A stretch of 64,000 nucleotides of DNA from contig JAZSQB010000027.1 in the NCBI GenBank assembly GCA_045537695.1, positions 11,288-75,287 on the forward strand. The letters run 5' to 3'. The notes under the pieces were generated by a model, which did not search any database, was not told where the DNA came from, and was given only the letters and a program-made list of their open reading frames with translations. The position numbers and the translations under genes were made by a program. Shown here piece after piece: positions 2,753 through 57,906 of the stretch (positions within the stretch are counted from its first letter, which is position 1; each line of letters opens with the position of its first letter). This stretch comes from Clostridia bacterium. Its GTDB lineage: Bacteria > Bacillota > Clostridia > UBA1381 > UMGS1253.

Positions 2753-3346
2753 TCACATTTCCCGTCTGCCTTCCATGGCGCGAAGCAGCGTCACTTCATC
2801 GGCATACTCCAGGTCGCCGCCGACCGGAATACCGTGCGCAATACGCGTCACCTTCACGCCGAGCGGCTTTAAAAGCTTGCAAAGATACATCGCGGTTGCT
2901 TCGCCCTGCACCGTCGGATTGGTCGCCATAATGACCTCCTGCACCGTCCCGTCGGAAAGACGCTTTAAAAGCGGCGCAATCTTTAATTCATCCGGACCAA
3001 TACCGTCCATCGGCGAAAGCGCGCCGTGGAGCACGTGGTAAAGACCATTGTATTCGCGCACCTTTTCCATCGCCGCCACGTCTTTGGGCGACTCCACCAC
3101 GCAAATCACACTGCTGTCACGCTCTGTATCCGCACAGATTTCGCACGGCGAACGGTCCGTCAGATTCTGGCAAAAATCGCAGAATACGACCTTTTCCTTT
3201 GCCTCTGCAATGGCATCGCACATATCCTCTGCGTATTTTTTCGGCATCTGCAGCACGTGAAAAGCAATGCGCTCTGCCGATTTTCTGCCGATGCCCGGTA
3301 ATTTTTCAAACTGTTCTATTAACTTTTCAATCGTTGGTGCATGCAT
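2753..3346 (-). CDS. recR: Recombination mediator RecR
   Basis: [13 protein letters not shown] HhH, C4 zinc finger, TOPRIM YHVLHG...[12 protein letters not shown]. Confidence 0.97.
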
Positions 3347-3506: not shown

Positions 3507-3698
3507 TTAAAGTGGGAATTTGGATGCAGCGCAAGGCACAGACGGTAGCACAGTGCGTTGGTACGCTCTGACGGCTACAACGCCACATCACATATATTTT
3601 AAGCGAAAATCAGATGCACGACGTGGCGTAAACAATGACACAGTACGCAGGTACGGGTCATCGTTTACAACGAAGTATTGCGCCGATTTTACCTTTAA
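3507..3698. repeat. Two tandem units (one partial, one full) of a ~100-bp bulged-hairpin repeat
   Basis: Cores GCACAGTGCGTTGGTACG and ACACAGTACGCAGGTACGGG, flanked by (A/T)GGC and AACG. Homologous to 29032-29228. Terminal TTAA overlaps the ybaB stop codon. Confidence 0.8.
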
Positions 3699-4036
3699 AA
3701 CAAGCCTGGGATGCTCATGCCGCCCGTCAACTTCCCCATCGTGCCGGCTGCAAGCTCATCTGCCTGACGCATAGCCTCATTAACTGCGCTTAAAATCAAA
3801 TCCTCGAGGGTTTCTACATCATCCGGGTCAACGGCTTCCGGACTGATTTTGATTGCCATAAGCTCTTTTTTACCGTTGATGGTTACGGTGACAGCACCGC
3901 CGCCGGCAGATGCTTCGAGTGTTTTTTCTTCTATTTCCGCTTGCGCTTTGAGCATTTCTTCCTGCATCTTCTGCGCTTGCTTAATCATTTGGTTCATGTT
4001 GCCCATACCAGGCATACCGCCTCTGAATTTTGCCAT
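3695..4036 (-). CDS. ybaB: YbaB/EbfC nucleoid-associated protein
   Basis: [13 protein letters not shown]...[10 protein letters not shown]...[12 protein letters not shown]; conserved dnaX-ybaB-recR synteny. Confidence 0.95.
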
Positions 4037-9153: not shown

Positions 9154-9207
9154 ACAAAAAGCATACAAAAAAGACACTTCGTATCAGGTGTACTCTTAAG
9201 GACAGTA

Positions 9208-9237
9208 AAAGGCTCTTGCAATTTTGCGAGAGCCTTT
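9208..9237. terminator. Hairpin at the RAYT 3' end
   Basis: aaaggctcttgcaa-tt-ttgcgagagccttt; a homologous hairpin follows the RAYT remnant at 17830. Confidence 0.65.
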
Positions 9238-9733
9238 AATCATTGTAAAAACAATCTTTTTCCCATCTTAAAACATTTGTATCAATATATTCCCATATTT
9301 TCTGATAATCCTTTTCACCACGGATTATATGGTCATTATAGGAAGATTGCCATACATTTTTACCATATTCTTTATTGCAATATCTCTTTAATAAGGATAT
9401 AAATTTTGATATTTCGTTATTGTAGGGTGCGGCGGTTTGCGACGCACCGTTTTTGTAATCCGTAATATTCAAAATTAAATGAAAATGATTTGGCATTATG
9501 ACATATTTATCTATTTTTATATGAGAGTATTTCTCGTTCATCAGATTAATATATTTATCAAGAATTGCACCACATTCCGATAGTATTATTTGCGGTGTGT
9601 CGAAATCGCCACACCCTACGATTTTTCCAAGCAGTTGTTTTCTATCTTTCACGCAGATTGTCAGGAAATACATCCCCGGTGTTGAATAATCATATCCTTT
9701 TAATCTTGTTGGTTTTCGTTTTGGTAAATCCAT
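9236..9733 (-). CDS. REP-associated tyrosine transposase (RAYT; IS200/IS605 Y1 HUH superfamily)
   Basis: RKPTRLKGYDYS..GMYFLTIC, YVIMPNHFH (HUH), WQSSYNDHIIR, YIDTN (catalytic Tyr). Confidence 0.9.
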   Translation of the reverse strand: MDLPKRKPTRLKGYDYSTPGMYFLTICVKDRKQLLGKIVGCGDFDTPQIILSECGAILDKYINLMNEKYSHIKIDKYVIMPNHFHLILNITDYKNGASQTAAPYNNEISKFISLLKRYCNKEYGKNVWQSSYNDHIIRGEKDYQKIWEYIDTNVLRWEKDCFYND

Positions 9734-11058: not shown

Positions 11059-11118
11059 AAATTACTGTCCTTTAGAGTACTCCTCATAAGAAGTGTCTTT
11101 TTTACTAAGAAAAATCAA

Positions 11119-17829: not shown

Positions 17830-17997
17830 AAGGCTCTCGCTACTGCGAGAGCCTTACATCATTATAAATACAATTCTTTTCCCATCCCATTACATCCATA
17901 TCTATATATTCCCATATTTTCCGACAACCCGCTTTACCAAGAATAACGTGGTCATGCGCGCCTGCCATATGTTTTCACCATATGCCTTGTTACAAAG
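17830..17997 (-). pseudogene. Frameshifted C-terminal remnant of a second RAYT gene with its 3' hairpin
   Basis: - strand reads CNKAYGENIWQA / HDHVILGKAGCRKIWEYIDMDVMGWEKNCIYND, versus CNKEYGKNVWQSSYNDHIIRGEKDYQKIWEYIDTNVLRWEKDCFYND in the intact RAYT. Followed by aaggctctcgc-tact-gcgagagcctt. Confidence 0.85.
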
Positions 17998-23425: not shown

Positions 23426-25640
23426 TTTTTGCCTCCTCTACAATAGCAACGAGACGTTGCTTTAAGCTTGTAAAGCGCAAATTTTCCGTATCATTCGCCG
23501 TCATCGCCGCGACCGCGGATTTCATACCTACCAAAACCACAAGCTTTTTTGCGCGCGTCACCGCCGTATAGAGCAGATTGCGCTTCATCAGCATCGGCGC
23601 CGCGTGATATACCGGCAAAATCACCGCATCAAATTCACTACCCTGGCTCTTATGCACCGTCACCGCATACGCAAGCTCTAATTCTGTCAGCTGGTCAAAG
23701 GTGTAATGCACCTGCTTATCCTCATCGTAGACCACCGTCACGACCCTGTTTTCCTTATCCATATGCGTGATATACCCGATATCGCCGTTAAACACACCCT
23801 GCCCGAAGGCATCACTTTCCGTGCTGGTCCAGCCGATATCGTAATTATTCTTAATCTGCATCACCTTGTCGCCCACGCGAAAGACTGTATCGCCCATGCG
23901 ATGCTCCGCTTTATCACGGGACGGCGGATTCACGCGCTGCTGCAGCAGCATATTTAAATTCTGCACGCCGCTGATGCCCTTGCGCATTGGTGAGAGCACC
24001 TGCATCTGCCGGAGCGCATCAAATCCGTACGCCTGCGGCAGGCGCTTTGCATACAAATCCGCCACCGTTGCCGCAATCGTTTCTGCATCATGCTTTTCTG
24101 TATAAAAGAAGTCGGACTGCACGTCATCTAAAATCGGGGTGTCTCCGTGTATAATGCGGTGCGCATTCTGCACAATCAGGCTCTGCGCCGCCTGGCGGAA
24201 AATCTCCGTCAGACGCACGGTCTGCACCAGTCCGCTCTCGATAATATCTTTAAGCATATTACCCGCGCCCACCGGCGGCAGCTGGTCGGCATCGCCGACG
24301 AAAATCACCGTACTGTCCGGATGCACCGCATTTAAAAGTGCGCTGCCCAAAAGTACATCAATCATACTGCTTTCATCCGCAATAACGACATCTTCTTCTA
24401 ATGGATTAGACGCATCGCGCGCAAAGATTTGCGCCTCGCCCTCCTCCATATATTCAATCTCTAAAAGTCTGTGGATCGTGCTTGCGCGCTCGCCCGTTAC
24501 CTCACCGAGCCGCTTCGCCGCGCGCCCCGTCGGCGCCGCAAGCGCAATCTTATAACCATCCTGCTTTAAAATATCCATAATGGTGTTCACGACAGTTGTT
24601 TTGCCTGTGCCCGGACCGCCCGTCAGAACCATAATGCGATTGCAAAGTGCACAAATCACAGCCTCGCGCTGCTTGTCACCGAGCTGAATACTGCTGTTTT
24701 TCTGCCAATCATCCACACGCTGTGCCGCTTTCTTTGCCGTATACAGTGCTTTGCCCTGCCGGAGTCTCGCAATCTTTGCCGCAATCGCGCGCTCTGCCTG
24801 TAAAAAGGTGTTTAAAAATACGCAACGCACCTCCGATACGGTTTCCACCGTAATGCGCCCCTCAATGGCAAGCGAAATCAGTGCGCCCACTGCCACTTCA
24901 CCATCCACCGACAGCATACGGCATACGGTTTCTATCAGCTCGTGCTCCGGCAGGTACGTGTGTCCGCGCTCATAAGCATTGGAAAGCAAAATATATGCAA
25001 GCGCCGCCTTGATACGGCTCTTGCTGTCTGGCGGCAAGCCCATCTGCATCGCAACGCGATCCGCCGTTTTAAACGAAATGCCGTGCACAGCGCTGACAAG
25101 CACGTACGGATTCTGGCGAATCAGATTCACCGCATCTGCCCCGAGCGCACGCTGCACCTTCAGTGCCATCGCCGCGCTGATGCCGTAATTTTGCAAAAAC
25201 ATCACCGTCTGCTGCACGCTCTGCTGCTTTAAATAGCTCTCGCCGATGTCGAGCGCCTTTGCCTTGCTGATGCCCTTGATGCACGCCAATCTCTCCGGCG
25301 CCGTCATCATCACGTTGAGCGCATCTTCGCCAAACTCTGCGACAATGCGCTGCGCCGTCGCAAGCCCGACCCCGCGGATGATGCCCGAGCCAAGATAGCG
25401 CAAAATGCCCTCCTCGGTCGTCGGTTGCACCTTTTCGTATGCGCTGACCTTAAACTGTCTGCCATACTCGCGGTGGTGCGTCCAATCGCCGTACAGACAC
25501 ACGCTTTCGCCCTCGCTTAAATACGGCATACATCCGGTCGCCGTGACCGGCTCACCCTCCACATCCAGCATACAGACCGTGTATCCGTTTTCGTAATTTG
25601 CATATATAATTTCTTCTACAAAGCCGTTTAATTCAATCAT
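23418..25640 (-). CDS. recD2: ATP-dependent RecD-like helicase RecD2
   Basis: GGPGTGKTT, APTGRAAKR, DESSM, VGDADQLPPVG, AYAVTVHKSQGSE, YTAVTRAK; start MIELNG. Confidence 0.95.
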   Translation of the reverse strand: MIELNGFVEEIIYANYENGYTVCMLDVEGEPVTATGCMPYLSEGESVCLYGDWTHHREYGRQFKVSAYEKVQPTTEEGILRYLGSGIIRGVGLATAQRIVAEFGEDALNVMMTAPERLACIKGISKAKALDIGESYLKQQSVQQTVMFLQNYGISAAMALKVQRALGADAVNLIRQNPYVLVSAVHGISFKTADRVAMQMGLPPDSKSRIKAALAYILLSNAYERGHTYLPEHELIETVCRMLSVDGEVAVGALISLAIEGRITVETVSEVRCVFLNTFLQAERAIAAKIARLRQGKALYTAKKAAQRVDDWQKNSSIQLGDKQREAVICALCNRIMVLTGGPGTGKTTVVNTIMDILKQDGYKIALAAPTGRAAKRLGEVTGERASTIHRLLEIEYMEEGEAQIFARDASNPLEEDVVIADESSMIDVLLGSALLNAVHPDSTVIFVGDADQLPPVGAGNMLKDIIESGLVQTVRLTEIFRQAAQSLIVQNAHRIIHGDTPILDDVQSDFFYTEKHDAETIAATVADLYAKRLPQAYGFDALRQMQVLSPMRKGISGVQNLNMLLQQRVNPPSRDKAEHRMGDTVFRVGDKVMQIKNNYDIGWTSTESDAFGQGVFNGDIGYITHMDKENRVVTVVYDEDKQVHYTFDQLTELELAYAVTVHKSQGSEFDAVILPVYHAAPMLMKRNLLYTAVTRAKKLVVLVGMKSAVAAMTANDTENLRFTSLKQRLVAIVEEAKNA

Positions 25641-25777
25641 GATTTGCTCCTTCGGAATACTACATATATTATGACAAAACACACCTTCTTTGTCAAGCTT
25701 TTTAGAACAAATTTTCGATTATCCACCCCTTTACTTTCCCATGCAAAAATGGTATACTACCCCTTGAGGTGAAACAC

Positions 25778-26512
25778 ATGGCAGAAAATTATGCAGAATT
25801 TGCTGCGATTTACGACCGCTTGATTTTAGAGGACATCGACTATAACCGTATTGCAGATTATATCGAAGAAACCTTGCACCGTCTCGGCAAAAAGGCAGAG
25901 CTTGTCTGCGACCTTGCCTGCGGCACCGGTACGCTGACGGATATACTTGCCAAGCGCGGCTACGATATGATTGGCATCGACCTTTCGCCGGAAATGCTCG
26001 GCGTGGCGCGCGAAAAGAATCCGGACATTCTGTTTTTAAATCAGGACATCCGCGAATTTGAGCTCTACGGCACGGTAGATGCGCTTTTGTGTATGACGGA
26101 TTCGCTCAATTACATATTGGATGAAGACGATTTATTTGCCATCTTTAAAGCCGCAAAAACGTGCTACTTAAATCCGGATGCACCGTTTATTTTCGACTTA
26201 AACTCCCCGTACAAACTAAAAACCGTCCTCGGTAACAACACCTACACCTACGACAGCGACGATGTGTTCTATGTATGGGAAAACGAATATATCCCCGAGG
26301 AGAAATGCACCGATTTTTACCTGACCTTCTTTGTAAAGGACGGCGAAAAATATACGAAATTTACGGAAGAGCACACAGAGCGGATCTACACCGAGGCAAA
26401 AGTCAGCGCCCTGCTCAAAAAGGCAGGCTTTACCAAAATCGAGGTTTTTGACGGCTACACAACCGCGCCTGCGCACAAAAAAAGCGAGCGCCTCGTGTTT
26501 GTCGCCAGGTAG
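25778..26512 (+). CDS. Class I SAM-dependent methyltransferase
   Basis: [29 protein letters not shown]. Confidence 0.9.
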
Positions 26513-26838: not shown

Positions 26839-26935
26839 TGTTTGTTTGACCGCGGGTGTTTATATACCGGCAAAAATTTTAATTCAAAAAAAGAAAACGC
26901 GTTGCAATTGCAGCGTGTTTTTTTGTTTAATTTCC

Positions 26936-27051
26936 GGCAGGCGCAAGCCCCTGCCCTACAAGCACAAATGCCAATTTAACATCGTAGGGGCGGCGTCCCG
27001 ACCGCCCGTTTGTACCACGTTTGCGGGACGATGTGGGCATCCTCTCTCTAC
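26936..27051. repeat. BIME/REPIN-like cluster of three GTAG REP hairpins
   Basis: GGCAGG cgcaagcc CCTGCC-CTAC; GTAG-GGGCGGCG tcc CGACCGCCC; GGGACGATG tggg CATCCTCTCT-CTAC (degenerate). Confidence 0.8.
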
Positions 27052-28959: not shown

Positions 28960-29008
28960 AATCCCTCCACCGCTCAAGCGGTCCCCCTCCCTTTAGGCAA
29001 GGGAGGCA
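28960..29008. repeat. CCCTC-type double hairpin (copy 3)
   Basis: aatccctcc-accgct c aagcggt-cccc-ctcccttt aggc aagggagg. Confidence 0.6.
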
Positions 29009-29031
29009 TTACACAAACTTACCTTCAAGCT

Positions 29032-29228
29032 TTAAAATGAAATATTTTTGCTGTAAGGCGAGGCATAGACGTTGACACAGTACGTTGGTACGGGTCAATA
29101 CCAATCAAACTCACCTTAAGTATTAAAAGGCGGAAGTTTGGATGAAGTGCGAGGCGCGGATGGCGGCACAGTACGTTGGTACGGGCCGACAGGCGTAACG
29201 AAGCAATTCGCCAAATTTACCCTTTTAA
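29032..29228. repeat. Two tandem units (partial plus full) of the ~100-bp bulged-hairpin repeat inside the atp operon
   Basis: CACAGTACGTTGGTACGGG occurs twice. The full unit 29123-29228 is TTAAAAGG...CCTTTTAA and overlaps the atpG stop. Confidence 0.82.
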
Positions 29229-30070
29229 GCGTTGGAGCCGGAGACAATTTCGGTTATCTCCTGCGTAATCGCCGCCTGACGGGCACGATTGTACTCCAAA
29301 CTCAGGCTGTCAATCATTTCGCCGGCATTTTTGGTTGCCGACTCCATCGCGGTTCTGCGCGCCGCAGATTCCGATGCTTGCGCCTCGGCAACACCGCCGT
29401 AGACCATACCGGCAATGTATTGCGGTACAATCGAGGCAAATGCCGCTTCGGGGCTTGGCTCACATATCATAATCTCGCGCGTTTGTTTCTCGCTTTCCTC
29501 CGGCAGAATCGGCAGCATCTGCTCGATTTGCGGCACCTGCGAAAGCATAGATACAAATTTTGTATACACGATATACAACGCGTCAAACTTGCCTGCCGCA
29601 TACTGGGAAGCAAGCATATGCCCGATACGGTCACAGTCTGCAATGCTGATGTCTGCAGCAAGCAGATATTCATCCGACAGAATTTCTATGTTCTGTCTCG
29701 TAAAATATTCCATTGTTTTTTTGCCGATGGGCAATACGCAATACGGCGTATCCCCCACCTGATGGGCAAGGGATTTTAAAACATTGCTGTTATAGCCACC
29801 TGCCAGACCGCGGTCACCCGCAATCACAACAAAGCAGGCTTTTTTCACGTCGCGCTTTTCCGTATATACAGAAGAAAATCCGAAATTTCCGGCTGCAATG
29901 CGGTCGAGCGTCTGCGAAAGTATTTCAAAGAACGGACGTGCCCGTTCTACGCGCTCTTTGGCTTTTCTCAGCTTCGAGGAAGCGACAAGCTCCATGGCTT
30001 TGGTAATCTGCCTGGTGCTCTGCACGCTCTTGATGCGAAGCTTGATATCCTTCATAGAAGCTCCTGCCAT
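29225..30070 (-). CDS. atpG: ATP synthase gamma
   Basis: ITKAMELVA, DRGLAGGYN, YNRARQAAITQEITEIV. Confidence 0.97.
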   Translation of the reverse strand: MAGASMKDIKLRIKSVQSTRQITKAMELVASSKLRKAKERVERARPFFEILSQTLDRIAAGNFGFSSVYTEKRDVKKACFVVIAGDRGLAGGYNSNVLKSLAHQVGDTPYCVLPIGKKTMEYFTRQNIEILSDEYLLAADISIADCDRIGHMLASQYAAGKFDALYIVYTKFVSMLSQVPQIEQMLPILPEESEKQTREIMICEPSPEAAFASIVPQYIAGMVYGGVAEAQASESAARRTAMESATKNAGEMIDSLSLEYNRARQAAITQEITEIVSGSNA

Positions 30071-42224: not shown

Positions 42225-42259
42225 AAGACCTTGCAGGAAAATCCTGCAAGGTCTTTTTT
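42225..42259 (+). terminator. Intrinsic terminator
   Basis: aagaccttgcagga-aaa-tcctgcaaggtctttttt. Confidence 0.8.
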
Positions 42260-42271
42260 CGTGGGATTTGC

Positions 42272-42342
42272 GGCAGGAGCAAGCCCCTGCCCTACAAGCT
42301 TAATTTAAATTATGTGTGTAGGGCAAGGCGATTCGGCGCGCC
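42272..42342. repeat. REPIN-like GTAG REP pair
   Basis: ggcaggagcaagcccctgccctacaagc is 27/28 identical to 26936-26963; followed by a degenerate gtagggc... arm. Confidence 0.8.
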
Positions 42343-49111: not shown

Positions 49112-50566
49112 ATGAACATCGATCCAAAAAGCATCTGCGACAAATACACCACGGAAAATAACGCGATTTCGCGCGTGCTCGATGCCGGATACGGCAGGAT
49201 TTATCTTTTATACATCAAGCAGCTCAGCGATATGGAAGCGCTCCGCCAGGACATTATGCGCCCGATTCTGCAATACTGGCATTACTTAAAAAAGCCGCTG
49301 ACCGCGGACGATTTGTATACGCAGGTGCTCTGCGTGGAGGAATGCAGCTTCTTAGATAAGGAAACGTCGATTGAAACACACTTATTCAACGGAATGACGC
49401 TTTTATTTACAGAAGACGGCGCCTGCATCGTCATCAACCTGCGCAAAAACGCAAGCTCGTCTCCCTCTGCACCGGAGCTGAATTACTCCGTCTGGGGTGC
49501 GAAGGATTCCTTTGTCGAAAACATTGAAATCAATTTATCCCTCCTGCGCTACCGTATGAAGGACCCGCGCCTGCGCACGGAGCTTCTCTACATCGGCAAG
49601 CGTACGAAAACCGCCGTGGTCGTCACCTACATTGCCGACATCGCCAACAACGAATATATCGAGCTTGTCAAGAAGCGCTTAAATGCCATCGATATTGACG
49701 GCATTTTGGAATCGGCGCATCTGCAATGGTTTTTAAAGGACAAGGCGTTTTCTCTGTTTCCGCAGGCAGGGCTGGAGCAGCGCGTCGACAACACGTGCGC
49801 CGCTATGCTGGAGGGCAAGGTCGCCATTTTATGCGAAGGCAGCCCTCTCGCTATCCTCACCCCCAAAGTGCTCACGGAGTTTTTCCGTGCCGACGAGGAC
49901 GAGAGCGAAAATGTATATTTCGCCGTATTTTCCAAGGTTTTGCGCTATATCTGCGTGCTCATTTCCATTACCGTCACGCCGCTCTATATCGCTTTAGTCG
50001 CCTTCCACGCCGAAGCACTCCCCACCGCGTATACGATGATTCTCGCCGCCGGCAGGGCTGGCGTGCCGATGACGGTGGTCACCGAAATCATTTTAATGGA
50101 AGTTTTGGTGGAAATTCTGCGCGAATGCCTGATGCGCATTCCAAAAAACATCGGCTCTGCCATCGGTATAGTCGGCGGTATCGTTGTCGGGCAGGCAACA
50201 GTGGAGGCCGGCATCGTCAGCCCGTTGGTGCTTGTCATCGTGGCACTTTCGCTGATGACCTCCTTCGTCGTGCCGGATTACAGCTTAAACGGCACCGTGC
50301 GCATCGTGAAATTTATGCTGATATTTTTTACCGCTTTTTTCGGTCTGCTCGGTTTGGTCGCAGGTCTTATACTGCTGCTCACCGCCGCCATCGGTGACAC
50401 AACACTGCACACGCCGTACTTCGCACCGTATGCGCCGTTTTCGTTGCGTGACAGCCTGAAAAGCTTTTTTACGAACAAATATGTATCGGTACGCCGCCCG
50501 CACTTTTTGCGCACGAAAAATAAAATCCGGCAAAAGGTGGATGGGCGCAAGGATAAAACACCTTAA
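49112..50566 (+). CDS. Spore germination receptor A subunit (GerAA family)
   Basis: GAKDSFVE..NLSLLRYR, AMLEGKVAI, ILRECLMRIP..IGSAIGIVGGIVVGQA. Confidence 0.93.
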   Translation: MNIDPKSICDKYTTENNAISRVLDAGYGRIYLLYIKQLSDMEALRQDIMRPILQYWHYLKKPLTADDLYTQVLCVEECSFLDKETSIETHLFNGMTLLFTEDGACIVINLRKNASSSPSAPELNYSVWGAKDSFVENIEINLSLLRYRMKDPRLRTELLYIGKRTKTAVVVTYIADIANNEYIELVKKRLNAIDIDGILESAHLQWFLKDKAFSLFPQAGLEQRVDNTCAAMLEGKVAILCEGSPLAILTPKVLTEFFRADEDESENVYFAVFSKVLRYICVLISITVTPLYIALVAFHAEALPTAYTMILAAGRAGVPMTVVTEIILMEVLVEILRECLMRIPKNIGSAIGIVGGIVVGQATVEAGIVSPLVLVIVALSLMTSFVVPDYSLNGTVRIVKFMLIFFTAFFGLLGLVAGLILLLTAAIGDTTLHTPYFAPYAPFSLRDSLKSFFTNKYVSVRRPHFLRTKNKIRQKVDGRKDKTP

Positions 50567-50734
50567 AAAGCAATGTTTTGGTAAATTGCTGTATAAAGAA
50601 CGGCCAAAATTTGCCAAGGAATCGGCGCAACAGACATTCTTTTTTTCTGCATAATTAAACTATGCTTCGTCTTGCTTTTTGTCTTTAACTGCGGTATAAT
50701 GCTTATATCCGTAGAACAACGAGGGGGTTTTTTA

Positions 50735-57597: not shown

Positions 57598-57906
57598 AAA
57601 AAGGACGGGAAGGGCGATTGTTCTTAAGGATACAACGGTTTTAGCCGCTAATTTACCGAAAATAGTTTACAAAAAATCCGCATTATACGCGAGTATGATG
57701 CGGATTTTTATGTTCCTCTTTCCGACAAAATTCCTCGTCTAAAACTGCCGCAGGCACCTTAAAAGGGAATAGCTTGGATAAAGAGCAAGGCAGAAACGAC
57801 CGAAATCCGCGTGGATGTCGGTCGTTTTTAACACAGCTATTTGCCAAAATATTGCTTTTTAAGGCGTTTTATCCTTAAGAACACTCGCCCAAACCGTCCT
57901 TTTTTA
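57598..57906. repeat. Nested palindromic element: ~35-bp outer inverted repeat enclosing two hairpin units
   Basis: aaaaaggacgg-gaa-gggcgattgttcttaaggata ... tatccttaagaacactcgccc-aaa-ccgtcctttttt. Inside: aaaaatccgcattatac-gcga-gtatgatgcggattttt and a TTAAAAG...CTTTTTAA unit (57759-57862). Confidence 0.8.

Follow-up and report, generated by a model that had tools for sequence, protein, structure and literature searches.

Stop-codon-associated, gene-oriented hairpin repeats in gut Clostridia: an apparently undescribed family with the marks of an old DNA-level repeat

Two core-gene intervals of a draft Clostridia genome, ybaB-recR and atpG-atpD, each carry a long hairpin-forming repeat whose edge coincides with the stop codon of the upstream gene. 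Both lie in a 64,000-nucleotide stretch of DNA, hereafter the window (contig C52:11288-75287; a window coordinate is the contig coordinate minus 11287), of an assembly of 1.65 Mb in 78 contigs, with 45.7% G+C and 98.6% completeness. The features concerned are given below; gene names were checked with NCBIfam models, R1 is the covariance model of the repeat, and A and B are two of its subfamilies.

2753..3346, minus strand: recR, downstream of ybaB (TIGR00615, 283 bits)
3509..3592, minus strand: second A-type unit, 5′-truncated, in tandem (nhmmer profile positions 17-100, C52:14796-14879; repeat families D1 and D4)
3593..3702, minus strand: full A-type unit, the first after ybaB (R1, 87.1 bits, model positions 1-110)
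3695..4036, minus strand: ybaB/ebfC (TIGR00103, 93 bits, cut-off 49)
29033..29101, minus strand: second A-type unit, 5′-truncated, in tandem, upstream of atpD (nhmmer profile positions 35-103, C52:40320-40388)
29120..29230, minus strand: full A-type unit after atpG (R1, 98.3 bits)
29225..30070, minus strand: atpG (TIGR01146, 302 bits), its TAA (29225-29227) inside the terminal stem of the unit
50549..50610, plus strand: fragment of a composite element, consisting of a terminal repeat and the 5′ part of a B unit (pair I1, 84% complementary to 57815-57876)
57598..57904, no strand assigned: composite of ∼290 nt with a B unit, a terminator-like hairpin and terminal inverted repeats of ∼28 nt (inverted pair I2)
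57756..57863, minus strand: B-type unit, the hairpin module of the composite (R1, 91.5 bits; copies 90-94% identical on other contigs)

The RecR relatives listed are all distant, at 58-68% identity, and come from Clostridia, Oscillospiraceae and Acutalibacteraceae MAGs and from Bacilli, so that the organism is placed loosely among uncultured gut Clostridia. The spacer between ybaB and recR measures 348 nt, most of it occupied by the stretch initially flagged (3507-3698). The full unit at 3593..3702 overlaps with its 5′ end the TAA stop of ybaB, which sits at 3695-3697 within the terminal stem; its predicted hairpin has a minimum free energy of −35.7 kcal/mol (z −4.0). At the third site the composite fragment at 50549..50610 supplies the last codons and the TAA (50564-50566) of a GerA-family gene (49112-50566). 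The initial annotation had assigned full units at 3598-3698, 29123-29228 and 57759-57862 to a single family, and R1 recovers all three at the slightly wider bounds listed above (87-98 bits). Its partial units are likewise found again, two of them by nhmmer and the third by complementarity to the composite.

An iterated nhmmer search seeded with the three units returned 33, 40, 41 and 40 matches in successive rounds; the repeat family thus comprises 40 nhmmer matches in the 1.65-Mb genome. Thirty-one full copies were aligned (alignment A1), and a 41-pair consensus drawn from their individual minimum-energy folds was turned into R1, which finds 47 matches in the genome at E≤0.01, at least seven of which echo a locus already matched on the other strand. 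The unit is ∼105-112 nt long and forms one long hairpin. All five congeneric genomes (G001 to G005; the present genome is G000) carry it, with 31-76 R1 matches each. Outside the genus its occurrence is rare and patchy. Of 41 relatives, 18 show at least one match, with counts of 0-16 in the remaining genera of the family and of the order; at E≤1e-8 matches are present in 35 of the 151 genomes of the order. Four matches from outside the genus (L034-L037) are 108-109 nt long and AT-rich, and resemble subfamilies B and C, not A.

When the whole window was compared with Rfam 15, an SRP RNA and a tRNA alone matched and the repeat unit had no match at gathering score; at E≤1 the four unit-bearing loci gave 10 matches, all far below gathering scores, as chance-level hairpins do. 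A literature search of article full texts returned no description of the repeat family. The family is real and apparently undescribed so far, in keeping with the first impression that it belongs to no named family.

Nearly every full copy folds, by computation, as one long hairpin, as first proposed. From base to tip, a terminal stem of T-T-A-A-A-A-G-G and its complement is followed by an A/T-rich stem, a bulged C opposite A-T, two 3-bp stems, a 3×3 internal loop and a long stem of free sequence, which is closed at the apex by GTAC-N4-GTAC with a bulge. Covariation was assessed on 90 copies (89 distinct) from the genome and its congeners, aligned to R1. Standard pairs fill 89.4% of 3589 stem cells against 67.7% in column shuffles, none of 500 of which reaches the observed value; these counts come from an alignment fitted to the R1 structure and so lean towards it, and the margin is large. 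Sliding the stem partners by 1-3 columns lowers pairing to 37-48%. Changes occur on both sides in 39 of the 41 pairs, with a covariation score of 0.525 versus 0.164. The earlier observation that stems differ between copies yet stay paired therefore stands far above both shuffled and slid controls.

The ends of the unit pair and covary too: column pair 9/105 is AU in 48 copies, GC in 28 and UA in five, and many alternative pairs are found throughout the terminal stem (columns 4-13). The unpaired bases named in the initial annotation are conserved among the 89 copies: C at column 21 (72/89), C at column 81 (87/89), T at column 82 (84/89), A at column 91 (87/89) and T at column 92 (73/89). These fixed bulged bases give the unit a direction.

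Copies fall into three subfamilies. A, the form found at ybaB and atpG, is divergent, with ∼65-84% identity between loci. B is young: its copies are 90-94% alike in this genome and 94-99% alike in G002. It is one module of a ∼290-nt composite, which is bounded by terminal inverted repeats of its own and encloses a terminator-like hairpin; the five congeners carry many copies of this composite, at 83-92% identity. C has three copies in this genome, with further conserved flanks. An alignment of nine composites from this genome contains none that lacks its B unit, truncated copies being the sole exceptions. One composite can be seen both filled and empty (G002 locus L083 versus G000 contig C31), where it is inserted in the loop of a terminator hairpin. 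B units are not anchored at stop codons: among relatives, none of 10 copies is. The copies first grouped as one family are thus all related, with the qualification that those at 57759 and 50563 belong to the distinct young subfamily B and to its composite. Of the 85 copies from relatives, no two A-type copies at different loci of the same genome are as much as 93% identical over 90 nt; the A-type pairs that do reach 93% are tandem neighbours, places sampled twice, or copies of one locus in two species.

Units sit in intergenic DNA directly behind genes and point in the same direction as the gene. The 27 A-type matches in this genome reduce to 20 array-leading copies, 19 of them assessable, and 13 of the 19 start no more than 12 nt from the last stop-codon base of a co-oriented upstream open reading frame of at least 100 codons; 2.9% of 20,000 random intergenic placements fall within 12 nt of a co-oriented stop. 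At the opposite end the picture is reversed: in 0 of the 20 leading copies does an opposite-strand gene end within 12 nt of the 3′ end, the nearest lying 133 nt away. The loci of relatives repeat the asymmetry, with such a co-oriented upstream frame in 26 of 43 leading A copies and a gene at the other end in 4 of 43, counts that are not independent because one place was sampled twice and many of the sites are orthologous to those of this genome. In these relatives the stop falls at offset 0-7 in 22 cases and at exactly offset 13, in the internal GGTAAAT/GGTGAAT word, in four. TAA forms the left flank of most copies, and TAG or another word that of some. In most cases the stop of the gene lies in the terminal stem or in the internal word, which means that the unit either landed on a stop codon or replaced it. 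The initial annotation had the element begin at the TAA, in the orientation of the gene, at ybaB, atpG and gerA; this holds for the first two, and the gerA stop proves to be part of a B-composite fragment.

Orientation follows the gene, not replication. Three minus-oriented units (C28_254, C40_131707 and C40_135552) follow minus-strand genes on contigs where a positive GC skew identifies the plus strand as the leading one, and in the convergent pair at C40 135418(+)/135552(−) each unit points with its nearer gene. C7_22981 is an exception that fits neither the gene nor the replication rule. The upstream genes share no functional theme: they include argB, a microcompartment shell protein, xerD, purH-like, purF-like and YlbF-like genes, a PaaK-like ligase, gpsA, a galactokinase-like gene and cysS, among others.

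Comparison of the ybaB-recR and atpG-atpD intervals between congeners shows that units come and go. Between ybaB and recR, G002 and G005 have a spacer of 15 nt with no unit (empty sites L042 and L043), the ybaB stop being followed directly by the recR ribosome-binding site. The same interval holds two units plus other sequence in G000, two units plus a GTAGGG-type hairpin in G004, an unrelated insertion in G001 and, as read from the sequence, at least four near-identical tandem units of ∼104-nt period in G003, where the array runs up to the contig end. Between atpG and atpD, units are present in G000, G002, G004 and G005, with differing numbers of partial units, while G001 and G003 have no unit and a GTAGGG-type hairpin alone. 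The species patterns at the two sites differ, which points to independent events. At another site two units lie in G004 between a gene and its terminator, and the gene now ends at the internal TAA of a unit; the end of the same gene in G000 is plain. The units behind the galactokinase-like gene are dissimilar between G000 and G004 and point in opposite directions. Locally, units multiply into head-to-tail arrays whose copy number differs between species.

At ybaB and at atpG the inserted block has TAA(A) at either junction. A TA/TAA-type duplication would fit, but the palindromic ends of the unit itself could also give this word. A clean recent A-type insertion was found at none of the compared sites of congeners; two comparisons (L112 versus C56, and L092/L094 versus C66) were left out as empty sites, a different sequence or upstream gene preventing a clean comparison. 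Other species have units at most of the sites occupied in this genome. Sites in common, together with the want of any A-type pair at or above 93% between loci of one genome, indicate that A is old and that most of its present change is the gain or loss of tandem units. Conserved sites could also mean that units are kept because they are useful.

One rival reading takes the unit for a functional RNA element, a selected 3′-UTR or intercistronic hairpin that would serve as a shield against exonucleases, as a site of RNase cleavage that sets operon ratios, or as a means of slowing termination at the stop, its spread being secondary. The pairing itself bears on this reading. A stem selected as sense RNA should tolerate G-U far more than A-C. 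With the fixed U-G pair at columns 33/79 left out, the stem cells contain 3062 Watson-Crick pairs, 63 G-T and 64 A-C, and the equality of the last two points to complementarity at the level of DNA. In addition, antisense RNA folds more stably than sense RNA in 68 of 89 copies (means of −42.3 and −38.6 kcal/mol).

Copies at the same locus were compared between two species in 19 pairs of 21. In 10 of the 19 the same-locus copy ranks 1-4 of 60 by similarity, and here 40 double changes keep pairing, 28 single changes break it and three give G-U; the 40 pairing-keeping double changes indicate that the arms change in concert. In the other nine pairs the same-locus copy ranks 6-51 and is as distant as an average member of the family, a hint that units there have been replaced or reshuffled. 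These measures do not suggest an RNA fold under selection; the fold appears to be maintained at the DNA level.

On other counts the functional RNA element fares better. Orientation follows the upstream gene, including the three on the lagging strand, a stop codon adjoins 13 of the 19 leading copies, species share most of the sites, and the unpaired bases are conserved. Precedents exist as well: PMC6006769 reports that REP sequences raise mRNA stability and implicates them in the regulation of translation, and PMC3049150 reports cleavage of ERIC and Correia transcripts. Against this, one core-operon site holds anything from no copy to at least four between species, the genes upstream have no theme in common, terminator-like or promoter-like signals in the units do not exceed shuffled expectation, and Rfam has no counterpart. 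Strict polarity is unexplained by a symmetric DNA palindrome alone and fits a transcript-level effect at least as well. We consider a functional RNA element fairly unlikely: it is weakened by the G-U/A-C equality and by antisense stability, and kept alive by polarity. The 3′-UTR structure offered as one alternative in the initial annotation is accordingly borne out in its orientation with transcription and its position at stop codons, and not in the chemistry of its stem.

One further asymmetry separates the two strands. An ATG occurs within the first 36 nt of the antisense arm in 59 of 71 A- and C-type copies and of the sense arm in 18 of 71; the antisense ATG often stands 8 nt after a Shine-Dalgarno-like word. 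The fixed bulge of C opposite AT is exactly this sense/antisense difference in ATG. It could be a recognition feature or a fossil transposase start, or it could explain why mRNAs do not tolerate the other orientation. A conserved antisense peptide was considered and rejected: the frames run from 3 to 91 codons in 17 matches and are not conserved.

No mobilising enzyme with a matching distribution was found in searches for DDE_3 transposases, RAYT-like genes and integron integrases, in draft metagenome-type assemblies of the kind from which insertion sequences are often missing. IS630-type DDE_3 (PF13358) has no match in any of 41 genomes. Y1_Tnp matches occur in 28 of the 41; canonical Y1_Tnp genes (E 1e-39 to 1e-45) are present in G001 and G003, with none in G000, G002, G004 or G005. 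This genome has two RAYT-like genes, both below the NF047646 cut-off of 80 bits:

9236..9733, minus strand: RAYT-like gene, 165 aa (NF047646, 63 bits), flanked by 42-nt inverted repeats (pair I3)
contig C66: RAYT-like gene, 245 aa (NF047646, 68 bits)

The repeat unit adjoins neither. The 165-aa type is found throughout the order, with or without units. The 245-aa type was seen in G000, G001, G004 and G028 alone and, in these draft genomes, does not track the units: G028 has the gene and no unit match at E≤0.001, and the unit-rich G002, G003 and G005 (31-70 unit matches) have no 245-aa gene that we could see. Around the 245-aa gene stand four copies of another hairpin repeat, 23 nt long. The idea that this hairpin is a miniature of the unit's terminal stem was rejected, as it occurs beside the RAYT-like gene alone (four places, plus a weak match on C53). 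No candidates for mobilisation other than these RAYT-like proteins, of the HUH type, were seen, and nothing links them to the units.

An ordinary MITE would need a different enzyme: a DDE transposase of IS630/Tc1-like type with a TA or TTAA target, its parent insertion sequence lost or unassembled. IS630/Tc1-like mobilisation has been proposed for Correia, RUP and ERIC. The ends of the unit are inverted repeats that start and end in TTAA/TA, the TAA(A) words at both junctions of the ybaB and atpG blocks are what such an element might leave, and the related B unit travels in a composite with classical terminal inverted repeats and a clean filled-versus-empty site; the antisense ATG could then be a fossil transposase start beside one end. 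Yet the terminal stem covaries, when ends bound by a transposase would be expected to be conserved, and DDE_3 was found in none of the 41 genomes. No solitary unit arm adjoins a long frame fit for a transposase in G000, where all partial unit matches lie in arrays, and a strong orientation bias is not expected from cut-and-paste at a palindromic target. We judge the ordinary MITE quite improbable.

An attC-like site, used as folded single-stranded DNA by a tyrosine recombinase and inserted with polarity behind reading frames like an integron cassette, resembles the unit, as attC is generally understood, in size, imperfect palindrome, extrahelical bases, variable stem, polarity and stop position, but is scarcely credible here: no integron integrase lies above the TIGR02249 cut-off (265 bits) in the five genus genomes, whose tyrosine recombinases are XerD-type and others (best single stretch 72.8 bits, in XerD-like genes; whole XerD protein 133 bits), the units lie between core genes and in tandem arrays free of open reading frames rather than in cassette arrays, and their ends do not fit the attC core words.

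Together the above analyses lead us to put first, at about even confidence, the view that the units are an old, non-autonomous, DNA-level repeat: an imperfect palindrome of the REP/BIME, ERIC, BOX or MITE-like kind. The fold would matter in DNA: a trans-acting enzyme might use it in single-stranded or cruciform form, templated repair from arm to arm might maintain it, or both. A TA/TAA-type target, followed by survival of those insertions that spare both neighbouring genes, could produce polarity and stop-codon anchoring. On the mRNA the unit would then be a passive 3′ or intercistronic hairpin, which may locally change stability or termination, as described for REP, ERIC and BOX. In outline, a unit would land on a stop or come to supply it, survive in the orientation of the gene, persist through speciation, and grow or shrink in tandem. 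The non-autonomous mobile element first suggested is thus favoured by gain and loss, by opposite orientations at one site, by tandem variation and by pairing at the DNA level; the recognition of folded single-stranded DNA and the TTAA/TA target that were attached to it find no partner enzyme to carry them.

A more radical version, which we hold to be distinctly doubtful, is that the units represent an undescribed class of structure-defined mobile DNA: folded single-stranded DNA, recognised by fixed extrahelical bases and not by conserved ends, inserted with polarity at the 3′ boundaries of transcribed genes, at or next to the stop, by an enzyme that would read the non-template strand, using attC- or IS200-like chemistry coupled to transcription and not to replication.

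A repeat of this abundance has practical consequences. Small, gene-dense genomes of uncultured gut Clostridia carry dozens of long hairpins on the stops of core genes, the ATP synthase operon included. Units break assemblies, and many copies stand at contig ends. Gene callers can be misled, since the stop and the last codons of a gene may come from the unit. Array length differs between species and so supplies strain-level markers. The pairing of strict polarity with covariation confined to Watson-Crick pairs is unusual, and the enzyme or process behind the units would show how repeats persist through speciation in Firmicutes.

Several known systems invite comparison. attC sites are structure-defined and polar, have fixed extrahelical bases and lie at the end of a reading frame; the units differ in having no integron integrase, no cassette arrays and different end words. 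The small elements of the IS200/IS605 group have unlike left and right ends, subterminal hairpins and a fixed left target word, and go with a TnpA in the genome; the two ends of the unit pair together, its left flank is mostly TAA, and canonical Y1_Tnp genes occur in two of the congeners.

ERIC/IRU of Enterobacteriaceae and Correia of Neisseria are closer in form, being imperfect palindromes of ∼100-150 nt in transcribed intergenic DNA. ERIC and Correia have a TA target, and we know of no report of strict stop-codon anchoring and polarity for either. They belong to other phyla, and the comparison is one of descriptions. Orientation-dependent effects on transcripts are reported for both in PMC3049150.

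BOX, from Streptococcus pneumoniae, offers the precedent for stop codons: in one genome it supplies the stop in 36 of 58 overlapping coding sequences, according to the same paper (PMC3049150). Like the unit, BOX is a Firmicute intergenic repeat that folds, is co-transcribed and encodes stops. It is modular (boxA-boxB-boxC), whereas the unit is a single long hairpin repeated in tandem as a whole, a comparison of descriptions.

REP/REPIN-RAYT systems have been described mainly in Proteobacteria. REP sequences close to stop codons reportedly stall ribosomes, a finding ascribed to Liang, Rudd and Deutscher (2015). PMC6006769 gives REPs as 21-65 nt long with a tetranucleotide guide 5′ of the hairpin foot, and the RAYT gene as flanked by its own REPs. 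The unit differs on each count: it is one hairpin of 105-112 nt; the 5′ side of its consensus reads T-T-A-A-A-A-G-G, with no GTAG-type word at the foot in consensus or alignments; and the RAYT-like genes here are flanked by other repeats and, in these draft genomes, do not follow the distribution of the units. The same genomes have another hairpin repeat, of GTAGGG type, that comes closer to REP than the unit does. What the unit shares with REP, BIME and REPIN is a manner of life: intergenic hairpins behind genes, clusters and arrays, complementary arms, and the long vertical persistence described for REPINs.

Among the ~105-nt hairpin units, a copy of the young subfamily B forms part of a larger entity:

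window 57598-57904: composite of ~290 nt, containing a B unit

The composite is bounded by terminal inverted repeats of ~28 nt and carries a two-way terminator-like hairpin of its own. A clean pair of filled and empty sites is provided by the congeneric genome G002 (L083:385-1144, filled) and contig C31 of the genome under study, G000 (25481-25830, empty): in the filled site the composite interrupts a terminator hairpin at its loop. Other copies, too, have flanking sequences that are inverted repeats. The composite looks like a young MITE that has hairpin loops as its target.

The antisense arm of the units often carries a Shine-Dalgarno-like word followed, after 8 nt, by ATG (for example, window 29123-29160, + strand). 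Among copies of the divergent subfamily A and subfamily C the ATG is present on the antisense arm in 59 of 71, versus 18 of 71 for the sense arm. The reading frames that follow the antisense ATG are short and show no conservation.

Other sequences occur beside the units or in their place. Upstream of recR, the congeneric genome G001 contains other inserted DNA, at least 0.8 kb long (L039:701-1500), at a position occupied in other species by units or by a 15-nt spacer; the part of this locus that precedes recR gave no match to ybaB. A further repeat, rich in G+C and with the appearance of a double hairpin, recurs adjoining unit arrays:

window 28960-29010: repeat with GGGAGG/CCCTCC words; also in loci L039 and L060, and in G000 contig C56 at ~1790-1850

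Two RAYT-like genes, that is, genes resembling Y1 HUH transposases, each have repeats around them:

window 9236-9733, - strand: 165-aa RAYT-like (Y1 HUH) gene
window 9167-9208 and 11062-11103: 42-nt inverted repeats, 90% complementary
window 9225-9336 and 17844-17955: 112-nt direct repeat, 78% identity
L200 (G000 contig C66) 1199-1936, - strand: 245-aa RAYT-like gene
L200 898-922, 1133-1182 and 1996-2019: 23-nt hairpin repeats

Between the 42-nt repeats lie the 165-aa gene, a reading frame of 80 aa and a gene of 256 aa. Proteins like the 165-aa product in size and type occur across the order. The first copy of the 112-nt repeat overlaps the 3′ part of the 165-aa gene, and because of this overlap its partner at 17844-17955 may be the remnant of a second copy. 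The 23-nt hairpin repeat stands on both sides of the 245-aa gene and, within G000, is found only there.

A second repeat family, besides the 105-nt units, consists of the word GTAGGG followed by a short hairpin, the stem of which varies among copies:

window 26909-26963 and 42245-42299: GTAGGG-hairpin repeat
L061:1431-1546, L062:1436-1551 and L040 (ybaB-recR spacer): GTAGGG-hairpin repeat

In the alignment, one hairpin of this type is inserted at the apex of an A-type unit (G000 contig C56:29828-29925; L019:301-428). It is this GTAGGG-hairpin family, rather than the 105-nt units, that better fits classical REP sequences.
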